Part shown: in pieces, positions 25,867 through 42,495 of the stretch
Position numbering within the stretch: the stretch's first letter is position 1
Layout of the letters: the number at the start of each line of letters is the position of its first letter
Source of the DNA: a virus
Taxonomy: Duplodnaviria; Heunggongvirae; Uroviricota; Caudoviricetes
IMG/VR virus record: IMGVR_UViG_2671180473_000014
Strand: one strand, 5' to 3'
Length of the DNA: 44,047 nucleotides
The notes under the pieces: model-generated
The model's database searches: none
The model's input: only the letters and a program-made list of their open reading frames with translations
What the model was told of the DNA's origin: nothing
Translations under genes and position numbers: made by a program

Positions 25867-26803
25867 TTTTCCTCACATATGTCATATAGTAAAGGATTAT
25901 ATATACCGTTGTTTTGGACGCTCAAACAGCGAATCAGATCAAATAAAACGCACATTTGTTAACATTTACACAAAGTCTGCGTGGGATATTCTGAAAGAAT
26001 ATCCATAATGTGGAGAGAATCTATTGAAGTGCATGGTGCCGGGTGCCTCCCGGTGAACAAAATGTTCGTGATACCTGTCGGCGACAGAAAAGGTTAATGG
26101 TATCACCCCACCGCACAGGGGGATTCACCATGCAGGAGTTTTCTTAGCAAACTCACTGCGCGCCCGGCAACTCCCAACCACATAAAATGCGGAGTTTGTG
26201 GCATTTATGCATATAACTCGCAGGAATTATCTTAAAAAACTGATGTCGATCCGGATTAAAAAGAAGCAGGTCATCATCAGATGACTGGAAAAAAGGAAAA
26301 CAAAAAATACTCATCATACAGTTTTGATTGCAGGGATGAGCCTGCTATGCACAATATGCAGAATATAAGCAAGATAAAAATATGCAGGCATATTATTTCG
26401 GATCTTGTTATTAACACAACCTTTTTAATAATCATTTGGCATACAATAAACCAGCCCAAAAAGAACCGCCTAAACAGGCGGTTGGTCAATACAAAGGATG
26501 CTTCGTCTTTATTATAGTAATCTGAGGCGTCGGGTGTCTTGTATCAGACAACATATTGTCCCGCTAAACAGCGAATTACAAACCACCCTGCAATGATCTC
26601 TCATCTCATTTTATATGAGTTGACGACATCAGGATAACGCATCATCAGCCCCTGCCAAGAAATATCAAAACTCCCGCCAGCAATGTGTTATCACAATATT
26701 GTAAAAAAAACACAGCACCGAAACTATAACTGGTCTCTGTTATAATTTGGAGCAGAAAGACCAGTTGCCCAACTAGCAGCATTCTCCCCTGCTTTCCTGA
26801 CGT

Positions 26804-28339: not shown

Positions 28340-28619
28340 TTCTCAATCTCTCGATGGCGCAGCGCAGCAGATGCCAGTTGTTCAGGCTGACGAATAAAGT
28401 ATAAATAAACTGGCTATGGTGTAAAGCCCCACATAGCATGAACAAACACTACATATCAAATAGCTGGTACAAGGATAGAAATACGACACTTATTATTAAA
28501 AACGATTAGATAAATTACATTTTAATGTTATGCAAAAGTTCTTTTTTATCATAACATTTCAATAAAAGCATTACAGATGCAATCATCCCGTCATCATCAA
28601 TTATTTAAGGTGGTTAAAC

Positions 28620-28706
28620 ATGGAAAATAACAAGTTCGCACATCTCGCTCCTTTTTTATCCGTAATCCTTTTCGCTTGTTGTTTTATATGGGCATTATTT
28701 TTATAA
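28620..28706 (+). CDS. Small hydrophobic peptide (28 aa), candidate membrane peptide / toxin-like ORF
   Basis: ATG at 28620 preceded by AAGGTGG Shine-Dalgarno at good spacing; translation MENNKFAHLAPFLSVILFACCFIWALFL (one predicted transmembrane helix); lies in the AT-rich island. Confidence 0.3.
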   Translation: MENNKFAHLAPFLSVILFACCFIWALFL

Positions 28707-29110
28707 AGTAGCCACATGATAAGTTGCTGGAATCATATTTCCCACTCAAGTCATTAACATTTGATAAGATATATCTAAAAGGACGCCTTTACATTATTTA
28801 TGCGTATATAATTTATTTATATACACAGTAAAGGTATCCTGGGAAAATATTTATCGTTAAAAAATACATCATAAATAATTAAGCTGAAATTTCAGAACAC
28901 AACTAATACACACAATAAGGTTCAGTAACAGTAATCTATGTGGACTACATCGAGATTTTTTGATTAAACTTTAATAACTTATTCCTAACACACAGAATGC
29001 ATAAACTAAAAGTAAAACAAATAGTTATACGAAAAACAACCATATTTATTCTATCTTCTCCTCTAATCAACATATCAATTATGTGTTTCATAACAGCTTG
29101 ACATAACCCT

Positions 29111-29141
29111 CCAAAAGATGCATTTTTAATGCATGTTTTGG
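29111..29141 (+). promoter_or_regulatory. Imperfect 31-bp palindrome resembling an NsrR operator, overlapping the promoter of the yeaR-like gene
   Basis: CCAAAAGATGCATTTTTAATGCATGTTTTGG; core AAGATGCATTT-T-TAATGCATGTT (29115-29137) versus the recalled NsrR 11-1-11 consensus AAGATGCATTT-n-AAATGCATCTT; TTGACA at 29098-29103 upstream and SD GGAGGAGGTGG downstream. Confidence 0.5.
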
Positions 29142-29152
29142 AGGAGGTGGTT

Positions 29153-29491
29153 ATGACACACAAGAGAATTCCTAAAGATTGGGTAATCAAACGCTCAACT
29201 CCGTTCTTCACAAAAGAGAACGTACCTTCAGCGTTATTAACACATCATAATACAGCAGCAGGTGTTTTTGGGCAGTTGTGCGTAATGGAAGGCACTGTAA
29301 CATATTATGGTTTTACTGATGAGAATGCTACTGAACCGGAGATAAAAGTAGTCATTAATGCTGGCGCTTTTGCAACAAGCCCACCACAATACTGGCACCG
29401 TGTTGAACTAAGCGATGATGCTCAGTTTAATATTAACTTTTGGGTCGCTCCAGACTTTTCGGGCGAAAAAGTCTATAGCACCAAAAAATAG
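29153..29491 (+). CDS. YeaR-like DUF1971 protein
   Basis: 112 aa from ATG 29153 (MTHKRIPKDWVIKRSTPFFTKENVPSALLTHHNTAAGVFGQLCVMEGTVTYYGFTDENATEPE...PPQYWHRVELSDDAQFNINFWVAPDF); pattern RSTPF...VM.G.V.Y.G..DE..EP...AG.FA..PP..WH..E..DD..FNI.F.VAP shared with E. coli YeaR as recalled. Confidence 0.6.
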   Translation: MTHKRIPKDWVIKRSTPFFTKENVPSALLTHHNTAAGVFGQLCVMEGTVTYYGFTDENATEPEIKVVINAGAFATSPPQYWHRVELSDDAQFNINFWVAPDFSGEKVYSTKK

Positions 29492-29520
29492 ATGATCATA
29501 TTAAAAATGCTTTAACAGTC

Positions 29521-29560
29521 AGACCCGGCAGGGCTATCCCCGACGGGTCTCATTTTTGTA
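29521..29560 (+). terminator. Intrinsic terminator after the yeaR-like gene
   Basis: AGACCCGGCAGGGCTATCCCCGACGGGTCTCATTTTTGT: GC-rich stem (GACCCG.../...CGGGTC) followed by a T-run, 30 nt after the stop codon. Confidence 0.5.
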
Positions 29561-30111
29561 AATATATTGGTTCTACATTGACAGGAGACTTCAACCATAA
29601 GAAGTAATCTGAATACTTGAGCAATAAATTTACTTAAGATTAATGAGCGCACCTTGCCGGACAAAGATAAACCAAGGTAACACCTTTTTTCTAGCCAGTA
29701 TGTAATCAATCAGAAAGCCGCTCCATAAGAACAACAGCAAGACAATAAATTGCCATTACAGCCGCAATAGCCAGCGCACATTTGAGAACCAGCACGACAA
29801 CCCCCTGTATTAGACGCACACCAGTCCTGATAAATATGAGGCTGTCTCGTCAGTGATTCAATACAACTATTGGGTATAGTTTCTGTGATTTTATTCTGTA
29901 GAAATGGAACACAACAACCAGTCACCACCAGCACTTCCTTAAATGCTCTAAGTCAGAAACAAGCCAACATTTTAGTCCGCTTTGAGCGATCTGCAGACAT
30001 TGCTAGCAGCCTTCTGTGTGAATTCTCAGGGAGCAGGTCGGCATAGCATCACGTTGAGGCTCTTACCCTACTTGTTCACACCAACCCTAACTCCACAGAC
30101 TGATTCATAAA

Positions 30112-31113
30112 TTAGTAATCTGCGTGTTTCGCACTTTTCAGAAATGCTTTCATATTTTCATTAGGTCGCTCAATTTCGAAGTTACTTCCATATAACTCTT
30201 GTAATTTTGGCCATAACTTACTTAATAACCCTCTCCTGCGATAAAATGGATGTATCCAAACGGTAGATAGGTACGGAGAATTTGCATTTGAATTGTTTAT
30301 TGTGACCAGCCCAACTAAACATTGTCGATAACCACTATTATCCATTGATTGTATTTCTTCGACGAATGGATACGCGATTACATCAGTCCAACCATGATCG
30401 GTTGTATCCCATTGCATTCCGTCATGACATTCCTTCGACTGATAGCGGCGTAAAGCTACACACGCGAGCTTTTGCCAATCTGGAGAATTAATTGTGATCT
30501 CTTCATCGTATGACGCGCCTATTGGAGCGGGTATTGGTCTGATTAATCCAGCATGGCATTCATCATAGAACTTCATGTTTCCCTCAGAAACGTTGTGTAC
30601 GTTGGGTTGCTCCATGTGTGCGCCATTCAAAAATAGCTCTGATAGTAGTGTATCTACACTGTAATCTTTATTGATTATTGTCGGCTTAGAGTTTTTCTTA
30701 TTAAGGCCGCGAGTAACGATTTTTTGATCAATGTTAACAACATGGAATAATCCGTCGGGGAGGCTAGCGAACCACGATGGGGCATCGGACCAGAATAGCA
30801 TGCCTTTTGTACTTCTTAAGAGTTTAATTAAGTTAATACAAGCTTCTTCACTAGTCTTGCCGTTGATGCGAAGTATGTTAGGACTAAAGTAATATTCATC
30901 CATATCAGGGAATGCAGCTTCGCAAAACTCCTGTACATAATTTAGCACCTGGATTCTACAGAGATCATCATAGCTGGTAATAACTAAGGGGGTATCTTCA
31001 TTACTATTATGATTATCAATAATGCAATCTATAGCGAGACTTACTGCTTTGCGTATCACTTCAGTTGAATCTAACGACTCTAAAAATTTTGTCTTTCGTG
31101 TGCGAATATCCAT
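30112..31113 (-). CDS. Hypothetical protein B (333 aa) of the AT-rich two-gene operon; C-terminal region weakly GNAT-like
   Basis: ATG 31111-31113, 15 nt after the stop of gene A; C-terminal ...CLVGLVTINNSNANSPYLSTVWIHPFYRRRGLLSKLWPKLQELYG resembles an acetyltransferase beta4-alphaC core (R-x-x-G motif), imperfectly. Confidence 0.55.
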   Translation of the reverse strand: MDIRTRKTKFLESLDSTEVIRKAVSLAIDCIIDNHNSNEDTPLVITSYDDLCRIQVLNYVQEFCEAAFPDMDEYYFSPNILRINGKTSEEACINLIKLLRSTKGMLFWSDAPSWFASLPDGLFHVVNIDQKIVTRGLNKKNSKPTIINKDYSVDTLLSELFLNGAHMEQPNVHNVSEGNMKFYDECHAGLIRPIPAPIGASYDEEITINSPDWQKLACVALRRYQSKECHDGMQWDTTDHGWTDVIAYPFVEEIQSMDNSGYRQCLVGLVTINNSNANSPYLSTVWIHPFYRRRGLLSKLWPKLQELYGSNFEIERPNENMKAFLKSAKHADY

Positions 31114-31128
31114 GTATGACCTGCGCTA

Positions 31129-32151
31129 TTAAAATTCATGAATGAACGGTTTGTCATCTGGTTGCAAAATGGTGGTTTTATTCGTTGCTACATTTAAACT
31201 GTTGTAGAGCATAATTGCCAGGTTCGATGCATTTTCAATCAGCGTTTCAAGATCCTGGTCTGTAATCACTACGAGGTTCCCTTCTTTATCCTTTCCACCA
31301 CGATGCACTAAGTGATTTCGATTGAGGGTTGCCAATTCAATAGCTTCTATCGGACAGTCTTTTTGTACTTTTATATCGAATGTAGCTTCATAGCGGTCGA
31401 TTACCTTTTTAGTGCTATGCCAGCTTGCACTGATCAAGTGTTCCTTGATTGACCTGATTAGCTCTCCCCTAATTTTCTCGATGGGTTCACCCTTGAAAGG
31501 CAACGCAGCAATATCTTTGCTTACTTTAAATTCAGTCTTACCTTTTTCTATACAATTGGCTATGTAGACATCATCTTTCTCTATAGAATTAATGAATAGC
31601 TCAACATAAAGCGTTTCCAAAGCTGTAATAACATTCGTGTAGAGCAAACTAAGCAAGTGGTTTTTTTGCTGTTGTTCAGTTTTATCTTTTGCAAGTTTTT
31701 TTATTTTATCGATATTATCAATGAATTTTAAATACGGATTACCGGAAGACGTTACAGCGTCGTAGATATCATCATCGTACCAATCATCTATATTATTTGA
31801 GTTTCCAGACCAGTCAAAACATTGTGTTTGTAATTCATCTACTAATTCCTCAATATACTCAGATTTAACATATTGACCGAAGATGGATTGTAGTTCTTCG
31901 CTCGCATCATACGGCCCGCCATATATGTAAGCATAGCCACCTTCTCTACTTTCATACGGACAAGCATTTGCCGGATCTTCAAAGTTTTCAAAGAACCAGT
32001 TTTTCATTACTTCGAGTTGATCTTTTTTGCTTATGTATTTTAAAGATTTTAGTGGAACTTTCTTTCCATTAACCTCGAAAACAATTTTCACGATGTAACG
32101 CTCCCTTGTATCAATTGCGCAACTATTATACCACAGCGAAATACAGGGCAT
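31129..32151 (-). CDS. Hypothetical protein A (about 340 aa) of the AT-rich two-gene operon; lone R-x4-H (HEPN-like) motif near the C-terminus
   Basis: Likely start ATG 32149-32151 with AGGAGG Shine-Dalgarno 6 nt upstream (MPCISLWYNSCAIDTRERYIVKIVFEVNGKK...); the ORF track extends it to 32220 via an upstream alternative start; contains ...ELATLNRNHLVHRGGKD... Confidence 0.55.
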   Translation of the reverse strand: MPCISLWYNSCAIDTRERYIVKIVFEVNGKKVPLKSLKYISKKDQLEVMKNWFFENFEDPANACPYESREGGYAYIYGGPYDASEELQSIFGQYVKSEYIEELVDELQTQCFDWSGNSNNIDDWYDDDIYDAVTSSGNPYLKFIDNIDKIKKLAKDKTEQQQKNHLLSLLYTNVITALETLYVELFINSIEKDDVYIANCIEKGKTEFKVSKDIAALPFKGEPIEKIRGELIRSIKEHLISASWHSTKKVIDRYEATFDIKVQKDCPIEAIELATLNRNHLVHRGGKDKEGNLVVITDQDLETLIENASNLAIMLYNSLNVATNKTTILQPDDKPFIHEF

Positions 32152-32289
32152 AACCTGCCTCCTTAAACTAACATACCATGAGCCAGCAATGTCCGCTATT
32201 GGCACAAAGCGGACAACCACGCTAGCTCTCCCCTGTGCCAGAAAAATGTCAATTTACATATGAACTAATGCTCTTTGATCTAGTAACGT

Positions 32290-32706
32290 CTATAAATACC
32301 GAAGATTTCCTTGATAAAATGCCAGTACACGTTTCATAACTTCACTCTTCCGGCACTCGCGACAGATTATGTTCTGACGCCTGTCATAGCGGCGTATTTC
32401 TCCGTCTGGTAATGACCAGATAAGGTCAGGATCAACCACAACCGTTTTTTTCACCTTTGCCCTGGATAGTTTTTTGCGGGCGTTTTTCCAATCCTTACGA
32501 GCCTGTTCAGACGGGAATAACCCATAGCCAGAGTTGTATACATCGCCACTGGCAACCAACTCTCTGGCAAGAATGCTCATCAGATATCTTGTCGCACCTG
32601 TCTTGGCCTCCAGTTGCCTTAACGTCTCGCGCCCACTCTGGCGTACCAACTCAACAACCTGCTCCTTAATTTTTTCACGCTCTTCCTGTGTAAAAACTTT
32701 TGCCAT
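32290..32706 (-). CDS. Hypothetical HTH / winged-helix protein (138 aa)
   Basis: ATG 32704-32706 with GGAGG SD; MAKVFTQEEREKIKEQVVELVRQSGRETLRQLEAKTGATRYLMSILARELVASGDV...; normal GC content, flanks the AT-rich island. Confidence 0.5.
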   Translation of the reverse strand: MAKVFTQEEREKIKEQVVELVRQSGRETLRQLEAKTGATRYLMSILARELVASGDVYNSGYGLFPSEQARKDWKNARKKLSRAKVKKTVVVDPDLIWSLPDGEIRRYDRRQNIICRECRKSEVMKRVLAFYQGNLRYL

Positions 32707-32721
32707 AAGCGCCTCCGGCAA

Positions 32722-42306: not shown

Positions 42307-42495
42307 ATGTATAAAATTACCGCCACTATTGAAAAGGAAGGTGGCACTCCTACTAACTGGACAAGATATTCAAAATCTAAACTAACGAAATCAGAATGCG
42401 AAAAAATGCTCTCAGGTAAAAAAGAAGCAGGCGTTTCCAGAGAGCAGAAAGTAAAACTGATAAATTTTAATTGCGAGAAACTTCAGTCCTCGTGA
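42307..42495 (+). CDS. ydaC: YdaC
   Basis: MYKITATIEKEGGTPTNWTRYSKSKLTKSECEKMLSGKKEAGVSREQKVKLINFNCEKLQSS; alternative start at 42295; Rac synteny. Confidence 0.6.
   Translation: MYKITATIEKEGGTPTNWTRYSKSKLTKSECEKMLSGKKEAGVSREQKVKLINFNCEKLQSS

Follow-up and report, generated by a model that had tools for sequence, protein, structure and literature searches.

An in silico survey of 2013 catalogued proteins in which an N-terminal HEPN/RES-NTD1 domain is joined to a HEPN domain, and predicted that they are Abi-like (Anantharaman et al., 2013, PMC3710099). That description is computational and names no GNAT partner, cassette or phenotype, and no experimental test of the HEPN/RES-NTD1 class was found in the literature. 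Other HEPN defence proteins include HepS of Salmonella Gifsy-1, a solo abortive-infection protein which cleaves the anticodon loops of tRNAs once a phage tail protein has activated it (PMC13043305), and DARNA (PD-T7-3), a HEPN anticodon nuclease (bioRxiv 10.64898/2026.02.22.705581). DARNA and ApeA are single-protein systems consisting of an effector and a non-catalytic activation domain, and both are abortive tRNA cleavers on mobile elements. The locus analyzed here is a pair of minus-strand genes, A and B, in a stretch of 44,047 nt from a member of the Caudoviricetes (IMG/VR virus record IMGVR_UViG_2671180473_000014; this whole stretch is called the window). The pair was found within a 2.24-kb cassette with 30-bp terminal inverted repeats at both ends (29975-32214) and, judging from its sequence, is most likely a candidate anti-phage module.

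Protein A has the layout of the catalogued fusion proteins, with an N-terminal domain of about 95 amino acids (aa) followed by an R-x4-H HEPN domain, and its family profile matches both PF18870 and PF18735, whereas the window protein itself falls below the cutoffs of both. As with HepS, a HEPN gene occupies the equivalent post-replication accessory slot of a lambdoid prophage; HepS has no inhibitory partner and is inactive by default. A lies outside the HepS family, which is defined as stand-alone HEPN proteins of <250 aa with no extra domain (PMC13043305). In the type VII system HepT-MntA the partner is an MNT nucleotidyltransferase, whereas here the partner has a GNAT fold, and the HEPN gene comes first and encodes an extra N-terminal domain. 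The clades with a solitary A and an isolate with a split B speak against obligatory neutralization here. ApeA and DARNA differ from A in their accessory domains and domain order, and no PADLOC match of A to PD-T7-3 was obtained. The A-B pair is neither HepT-MntA, as the partner fold differs, nor PD-T7-3 or ApeA. With respect to B, the type II GNAT toxins TacT, AtaT and ItaT similarly possess a GNAT fold of ~150 aa and reside on mobile elements. Literature searches on the accessions and PHROG identifiers of A and B, RiboL-PSP, the combination of HEPN with GNAT, and the DUF977 slot as a hotspot returned nothing relevant, and no experiment, named system or defence-database model was found for the architecture of A. 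An earlier note on this DNA, made by eye from the sequence, had called the pair a candidate undescribed module; this is true only in part, as no PADLOC, NCBIfam or literature match names the pair, but the architecture of A had been catalogued in 2013 (PMC3710099).

Gene A (31129-32091, minus strand; WP_014639476.1, phrog_17908), as delimited by the open reading frame (ORF) list, a PHROG match and the alignment of homologues, encodes 320 aa from a GTG codon. Its HEPN/RES-NTD1 domain covers residues 26-92 (31816-32016, minus strand; Pfam PF18870) and its HEPN domain about residues 140-308 (31168-31674, minus strand). The peptide LNRNHLVHRGG, in which the earlier note had seen a minimal HEPN signature, is present in A, and the assignment was borne out by comparison. 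The codons for R258-N-H-L-V-H263-R264-G-G (31294-31320, minus strand) specify the R-x4-H catalytic motif of HEPN proteins, and R258, H263 and R264 are invariant in 59 homologues with identities down to 26%, as are E159 and W224-H225. The protein has the all-alpha HEPN fold. The match of the window protein to PF18870 (E 1.9e-4, 22.2 bits) lies below the cutoff of 27.4 bits, and PF18735 (HEPN_RiboL-PSP) does not match it; among the 59 homologues, at E ≤0.01, PF18870 matches 55 and PF18735 30 (best E 7e-11). Protein A, with its invariant R-x4-H motif, belongs to the HEPN proteins and is a predicted HEPN ribonuclease (RNase). No match was returned by Foldseek with the full-length protein, and PDB sequence searches with the A and B family profiles gave nothing meaningful. 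PADLOC-DB v2.0.0 contained no usable match to A (the best, E 0.011, being to a PglX fragment), and in PHROGs both A and B belong to families to which no function is assigned. In agreement with the earlier note, profile searches linked neither of them to a phage housekeeping family.

The start of gene A is most likely GTG 32091, to judge from its conservation, and not ATG 32151, which would give 340 aa. Homologues of A begin at the position of GTG 32091, and 11 related cassettes, when aligned, retain the Shine-Dalgarno sequence and the GTG, with ATG in place of GTG in one locus (L116). The upstream ATG is not kept as a usable start in L003, L109, L111 and L114, where it reads ATA, is out of frame or runs into a stop. 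The PGAP call for this gene (WP_014639476.1) is also 320 aa. The longer frame, which has a strong AAGGAGG Shine-Dalgarno sequence, was rejected because neither its ATG nor the reading frame is conserved among related cassettes. The strand and the end at 31129 first given for gene A stand, and its proposed length of ~340 aa most likely does not.

Gene B (30112-31113, minus strand; 333 aa; WP_000354966.1, phrog_16994), identified from the ORF list, a PHROG match and annotation, is predicted to encode two domains. The N-terminal domain, about residues 1-170 (30604-31113, minus strand), is alpha/beta in an AF2 model with a pLDDT of 90.6 and has no Pfam, NCBIfam or PDB sequence match. The C-terminal domain, about residues 180-333 (30115-30576, minus strand), has a GNAT fold as modelled, in agreement with the weakly GNAT-like core noticed earlier (LVGLVTIN...VWIHPFYRRRGLLSKLW, present in B). 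Pfam Acetyltransf_1 scores 19.9 bits against the window protein (cutoff 20.7), and the GNAT model matches 17 of 45 B homologues. B is probably an acyltransferase. Its acetyl-CoA pyrophosphate loop reads R-R-R-G-L-L as compared with Q/R-x-x-G-x-G/A, so that the last G/A is missing, and several homologues have another residue in place of the first G. PADLOC gave zero matches for B. In a HMMER scan of 1.8 billion representatives the C-terminal domain was also found as stand-alone proteins of ~160 aa, most of them missed by Pfam, which are encoded directly after primase/helicase-type genes in phages and satellite-like elements (L222, L223, L224, and L227); the preceding genes encode DUF3987, DUF3631 or an 802-aa protein.

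The two ORFs lie on the minus strand where the earlier note had placed them, separated by a spacer of 15 nt (31114-31128, minus strand) which is part of a conserved motif, TGAATTTTAATAGCGCAGGTCAT (31116-31138), that is still present in cassettes without gene A. The A-T richness of the block was also confirmed, including the string quoted from 31681-31740: the G+C content is 0.361 for gene A, 0.391 for gene B and 0.390 for the cassette, compared with 0.498 in the replication-gene flank and 0.490 in the genes on the nin side, which are Rac-type genes of ordinary composition as had been described. The block proved to be more sharply bounded than was recognized at first. In paired loci from unrelated contexts, similarity extends from ~123 nt before the start of A to ~137 nt past the end of B, stopping exactly at the inverted repeats. 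The promoter-proximal repeat, t1 (GTCCGCTTTGTGCCAATAGCGGACATTGCT; 32185-32214, minus strand), was identified by an inverted-repeat search and cassette alignment, and the distal one, t2 (GTCCGCTTTGAGCGATCTGCAGACATTGCT; 29975-30004, plus strand), by an inverted-repeat search and a fuzzy scan. Both contain a palindrome with a 7-bp stem, which in the t2 copy of the window has two stem mismatches, and follow the pattern GTCCGCT-N10-AGCGGAC-ATTGCT. The fuzzy scan (≤8 mismatches) gave 0 matches in 30 shuffled windows, and the DNA hairpin of t1 has a predicted energy of -9.3 kcal/mol (z-score -3.7). In strain PF9285 the flanks are identical up to the outer half of each repeat, and inward of nt ~15-16 different DNA is found.

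The conserved non-coding leader (32092-32184, minus strand) contains a Shine-Dalgarno sequence, AAGGGAG (32099-32107 region), and an extended -10 element, TGGTATAAT (32125-32133). It is conserved in 10 of 11 related cassettes, and the -10 and Shine-Dalgarno elements are also kept in L117; from these elements, the leader likely carries the cassette's own promoter. At the other end, the 3′ untranslated tail (30005-30111, minus strand) is conserved within the cassette and includes an element, CGACCTGCTCCCTGAGAATTCA (30019-30040, minus strand), that is complementary to the A-B intergenic region and partly to the leader motif GCAGGTyAT; its inverted repeats were also seen in L107, L003, and L110. 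The 137-nt tail was also considered as a possible terminator or small RNA; this was rejected, as it has no significant fold (RNA fold z-score -0.27), no terminator match and no Rfam or tRNA match. On the minus strand, the leader (32150-32158) and the A-B spacer (31116-31124) share the 9-mer GCAGGTyAT, and its complement lies in the 3′ tail (30033-30039), within a conserved ~22-nt stretch complementary to the spacer region. This set could represent long-range RNA pairing over the start of B, or protein-binding sites.

Integron cassettes, mobile insertion cassettes and miniature inverted-repeat transposable element (MITE)-like elements, and pdif modules are comparable to the present unit in having short repeats, promoter-plus-gene units, interchangeable cargo, tandem arrangement and no transposase of their own. 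The cassette differs from these in having no linked integrase or transposase, no target duplication, and breakpoints in the middle of the 30-mer. The inverted repeats stand at its exact limits as in a transposon, but no target-site duplication was seen by eye at the cassette ends (~10 independent contexts), and no transposase lies inside any cassette, although no systematic search for a partner enzyme was made. The repeats are without the attC cores RYYYAAC/GTTRRRY, and no integron integrase is annotated near the arrays in prophages, satellites and plasmids. The pattern of the 30-mer has no evident resemblance to attC core or Xer sites. Movement of the cassette may instead occur by short-homology exchange through phage recombinases, such as the RecET encoded here; the mid-repeat breakpoints fit such an exchange and fit a site-specific crossover equally well.

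The t1...t2 pair was found to bound at least 10 other cargo sets in a survey that was a sample and not a census, the repeat-bounded loci noted besides the window being L177, L178, L180, L185, L190, L193, L195, L216, L218, and L232-L235. Their cargo includes proteins matching PADLOC Hp1-Hp3 (L180 and L190), which we take to be the Rst_3HP system. A PD-T7-1 homologue with a 156-aa protein is present in L193, L182 and the Rac slot of PF9285, where the annotated companion is a 4-fold beta flower protein of 112 aa. Further sets consist of a DUF262 protein (Rac slot of SE11), a RelA/SpoT-domain protein (GPEC1165), AbiH with a 463-aa protein (FY10), flxA (Qin prophage of K-12), an EAL-domain protein (a Klebsiella plasmid), and a LysR regulator, hydrolase and MFS transporter (a P2-like prophage, Trh52), together with cargo of unknown function in L195, L185, and strain 035152. 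Among the uncharacterized cargo are cassettes encoding 436+84, 176, 314, and 449 aa. The earlier note's suggestion that this slot often holds defence functions is thus supported, both the slot and the cassette type carrying known defence genes in other strains. A t1-like 30-mer occurs in 3482 of 5426 complete E. coli genomes (64%) and in 1375 plasmid records, and L213 has a single t1 repeat at a distance of 57 nt from a Dsr1 gene. At four loci one cassette follows another tail-to-head, the t2 of the first standing exactly 18 nt from the t1 of the second (L004 9321-9398; L090 9754-9831; L182 2757-2834; L233 5669-5746), and the composite palindrome of ~78 bp so formed could be a recombination site or a target preference.

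The repeat-bounded cassette family is a more unusual result than the A-B pair. No description of the 30-bp repeats was found in the part of the literature covered, although one may exist elsewhere, and inverted repeats go unmentioned in the papers on P2/P4 hotspots and on the PD systems. It is a tentative possibility that the repeats define an unrecognized, widespread class of Enterobacterales cassettes which shuttles defence systems (3HP, PD-T7-1, AbiH, CapRel-like, DUF262, and A-B), and that A-B itself is a new two-component abortive-infection system. Shuttling in that case could depend on a site-specific recombinase of an unknown kind, or on phage RecET/Red enzymes acting through short homology, and the GNAT-fold transferase might modify protein A, its RNA target or a phage trigger. 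The structure of the cassette may matter more than the pair, as a sequence-defined answer to how defence systems are swapped among prophage, satellite and plasmid hotspots, and the two 30-bp repeats provide a simple search key for further candidate defence genes in uncharacterized cargo.

Among the 5426 complete E. coli genomes, A (at ≥95% identity) and B were each found in 209, and the neighbouring DUF977/DUF1627 module in 4463. On the basis of these counts the pair is rare cargo and not core, in line with the earlier proposal of variable cargo. More than 200 genomes carry the two ORFs intact at ≥99% identity, and no copy of the pair is present in the GenBank phage collection. Linkage was examined with profile hidden Markov models over 176 loci from genomes, viral contigs and metagenomes. 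Every A that is ≥83% identical to the window protein is followed by B, with a gap of 6-15 nt or a 4-nt overlap (L112 and L113), and the two diverge in step across paired loci (A 83-100%, B 78-100%). In contrast, B was never present within 6 kb of A homologues at ≤74% identity, nor was any other conserved neighbour. The solitary A genes reside in an E. coli integrase-AlpA-Rep island, at Aeromonas prophage ends and in one conjugative element, and repeats are mostly absent around them, most of those seen (at 8 of 104 loci) being weak. The more distant homologues of B, at 39-62% identity, stand alone in marine gammaproteobacteria. Natural disruptions were also encountered: IS1 splits B in strain SF-173 with A and its leader intact, IS1 truncates A in strain AHB12 with B intact, and IS2 and ISSen4 are inserted in the leader or A-B spacer of two other strains.

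Three cassettes at 86% identity appeared to contain B only (L004, L090, and L091). An independent B cassette was considered for these and rejected, as they are internal deletions of A which retain t1, the leader and the last ~23 codons of A. The remnants lie at 7817-8003 of L004, 5817-6003 of L090 and 5876-6003 of L091, with two differing deletion end points (L004/L090 and L091), which shows that the loss of A, with B and the promoter retained, happened on at least two occasions. That the two genes always travel together holds for every A at ≥83% identity, but not for the more distant A homologues, the A-deleted cassettes or SF-173. The idea of an obligate two-gene module is weakened by these exceptions.

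The preferred reading, with a probability of roughly 0.6, is that A is a self-restrained HEPN RNase of abortive-infection type and B an accessory. The pair would travel as a self-contained mobile cassette, with its own leader and likely promoter, in a slot just after the replication and ren-like genes of a Rac-like prophage. A would be the effector, its HEPN/RES-NTD1 domain keeping the HEPN RNase inactive or sensing infection; on infection by another phage, the target of A would be host or phage RNA, with tRNA anticodon loops the most plausible site of cutting, by analogy with other stand-alone HEPN defence proteins, after which translation would stop and the infection would be aborted. B would be co-transcribed and not an obligatory antitoxin, and may tune or extend the action of A or be separate cargo fused into the cassette. 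A gated RNase is suggested by the invariant motif, the HEPN fold, the N-terminal fusion and the pairing of HEPN/RES-NTD1 with alternative toxin domains (RES, other HEPN; PMC3710099). As A homologues occur without a conserved neighbour, and A stands beside a broken B in one isolate, A is probably inactive by default, which agrees with HepS and with DARNA/PD-T7-3. The hotspot slot, which holds the PD-T7-1 homologue in PF9285 and the DUF262 protein in SE11, and the defence-rich cassette family add circumstantial weight. Gene structure, folds, catalytic motif, cassette borders, cargo status and the sharing of the repeats with known defence genes are shown by the analysis, whereas RNase activity, trigger, abortive outcome, any interaction of A with B and the mode of cassette movement are inferred.

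Several points weigh against this reading. The window proteins fall under the Pfam cutoffs for all three domains, and neither is matched by any PADLOC or NCBIfam model. The -35 element is poor and promoter activity is a prediction. The flxA, EAL-domain and LysR/hydrolase/MFS cargo look unrelated to defence, so the cassette association is suggestive rather than diagnostic. The reading is weakest on what B does: its role is uncertain, and its acetyl-CoA loop is degenerate, with a glycine that varies within the family. The trigger and the RNA target of A are proposals that cannot be deduced from sequence. If A does protect against phages, it would provide a first experimental handle on the gated HEPN nucleases of the HEPN/RES-NTD1 class, predicted since 2013, and the contribution of a GNAT partner to a HEPN effector would become testable.

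The close linkage of the two genes can also be read as that of a toxin-antitoxin or addiction pair, in which a constitutively toxic A would be neutralized by B, for example by acetylation, much as MntA AMPylates HepT in type VII, and defence or stabilization would follow from decay of B. HEPN toxins under a modifying enzyme are an established type (PMC13000451), and the tight spacing or 4-nt overlap, strict co-divergence, fixed order, conserved spacer motif and insertion elements in the leader and intergenic region would suit such a pair. Deletion of A on at least two occasions with B and the promoter kept is moreover the asymmetry expected of a toxin and its antitoxin. This explanation is nevertheless considered unlikely. 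A is kept without B in the solitary homologues and in SF-173, where its activity is presumed, and these cases make a classical toxin-antitoxin pair unlikely on sequence grounds; solitary B homologues in marine gammaproteobacteria, the occurrence of the B C-terminal domain alone in phages and the size of B (333 aa), far above that usual for antitoxins, also speak against it. The same solitary occurrences would be expected if A, as a solo HEPN defence protein, and B, as a phage-type accessory acyltransferase acting, for example, in counter-defence, host takeover or small-molecule modification, were independent cargo sharing a cassette and promoter. Tandem cassettes able to fuse or lose parts, natural disruptions of A alone or B alone, and the ~160-aa B-like proteins encoded right after phage and satellite primase/helicase genes are all compatible with such a view. 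It is, however, distinctly unlikely in light of the ~40 paired loci in several genera and contexts, with constant order, spacing and intergenic motif and no reshuffling of partners; this constancy exceeds chance adjacency, yet recent common descent of the cassette could explain it.

A role outside defence, with the pair being a lysogenic-conversion or regulatory moron that acts on host RNA or metabolism, or a decaying remnant, would be in keeping with the flxA, EAL-domain and transporter/regulator cargo elsewhere in the cassette family and with the want of defence-database matches for A and B. It is very improbable when set against catalytic HEPN residues that are invariant across wide divergence, ORFs that remain intact in so many genomes, a domain architecture typical of conflict systems (PMC3710099), and a slot and cassette family rich in validated defence genes.

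Copies of the pair and of the cassette type were also recorded in other contexts. An identical A-B cassette with both repeats is carried by the conjugative Klebsiella variicola IncFIA/IncFIC plasmid NZ_CP114364.1 (L217), which also encodes qnrS1; it adjoins relB and lies between ISKpn19 and IS26. The cassette has therefore moved from a prophage context to a resistance plasmid of another genus. In Serratia grimesii (L003, 9450-12607) the cassette is located in an island with RadC- and YeeU-like genes on one side and genes for 660-aa and 383-aa proteins on the other, the latter pair looking by eye like McrBC. A 3.3-kb contig labelled as a Collinsella sp. metagenome-assembled genome (L002, JAIHTM010000277.1) is 100% identical to the E. 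coli A-B pair and is most likely a mis-binned or contaminating enterobacterial contig. In the Qin prophage of E. coli K-12 (L216, 5001-6015) the flxA cassette adjoins relBE-hokD; ydfV, an annotated ORF that overlaps its t1 repeat, may be spurious.

The window as a whole is a Rac-like prophage with recE/recT, the RalA small RNA, structural genes and an integrase at its end. Its only Rfam matches are the RalA antitoxin small RNA (225 bits) and STnc100 (87 bits), at 42313-42491 and 25977-26163, respectively, and a search for tRNA genes gave none. The neighbours on the side of gene A are DUF977, DUF1627 and ydaV, and those on the side of gene B are DUF1971 and then DUF1367, DUF1364, and DUF1133. 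The DUF977 gene directly upstream of the cassette (32290-32721) matches PHROG 142, 'Ren-like exclusion protein' (E 1.4e-46), which places the cassette at the equivalent of the lambda ren/nin junction. Between the cassette and DUF1367 there is a second, still more AT-rich block (28340-29974) with a G+C content of 0.357 overall and 0.29 near 28400-29200. It is shared with strain PF9285, has no cassette repeats at its limits, and contains a plus-strand DUF1971/TehB-N-like gene (29129-29491) along with ~600 nt that are free of long ORFs.

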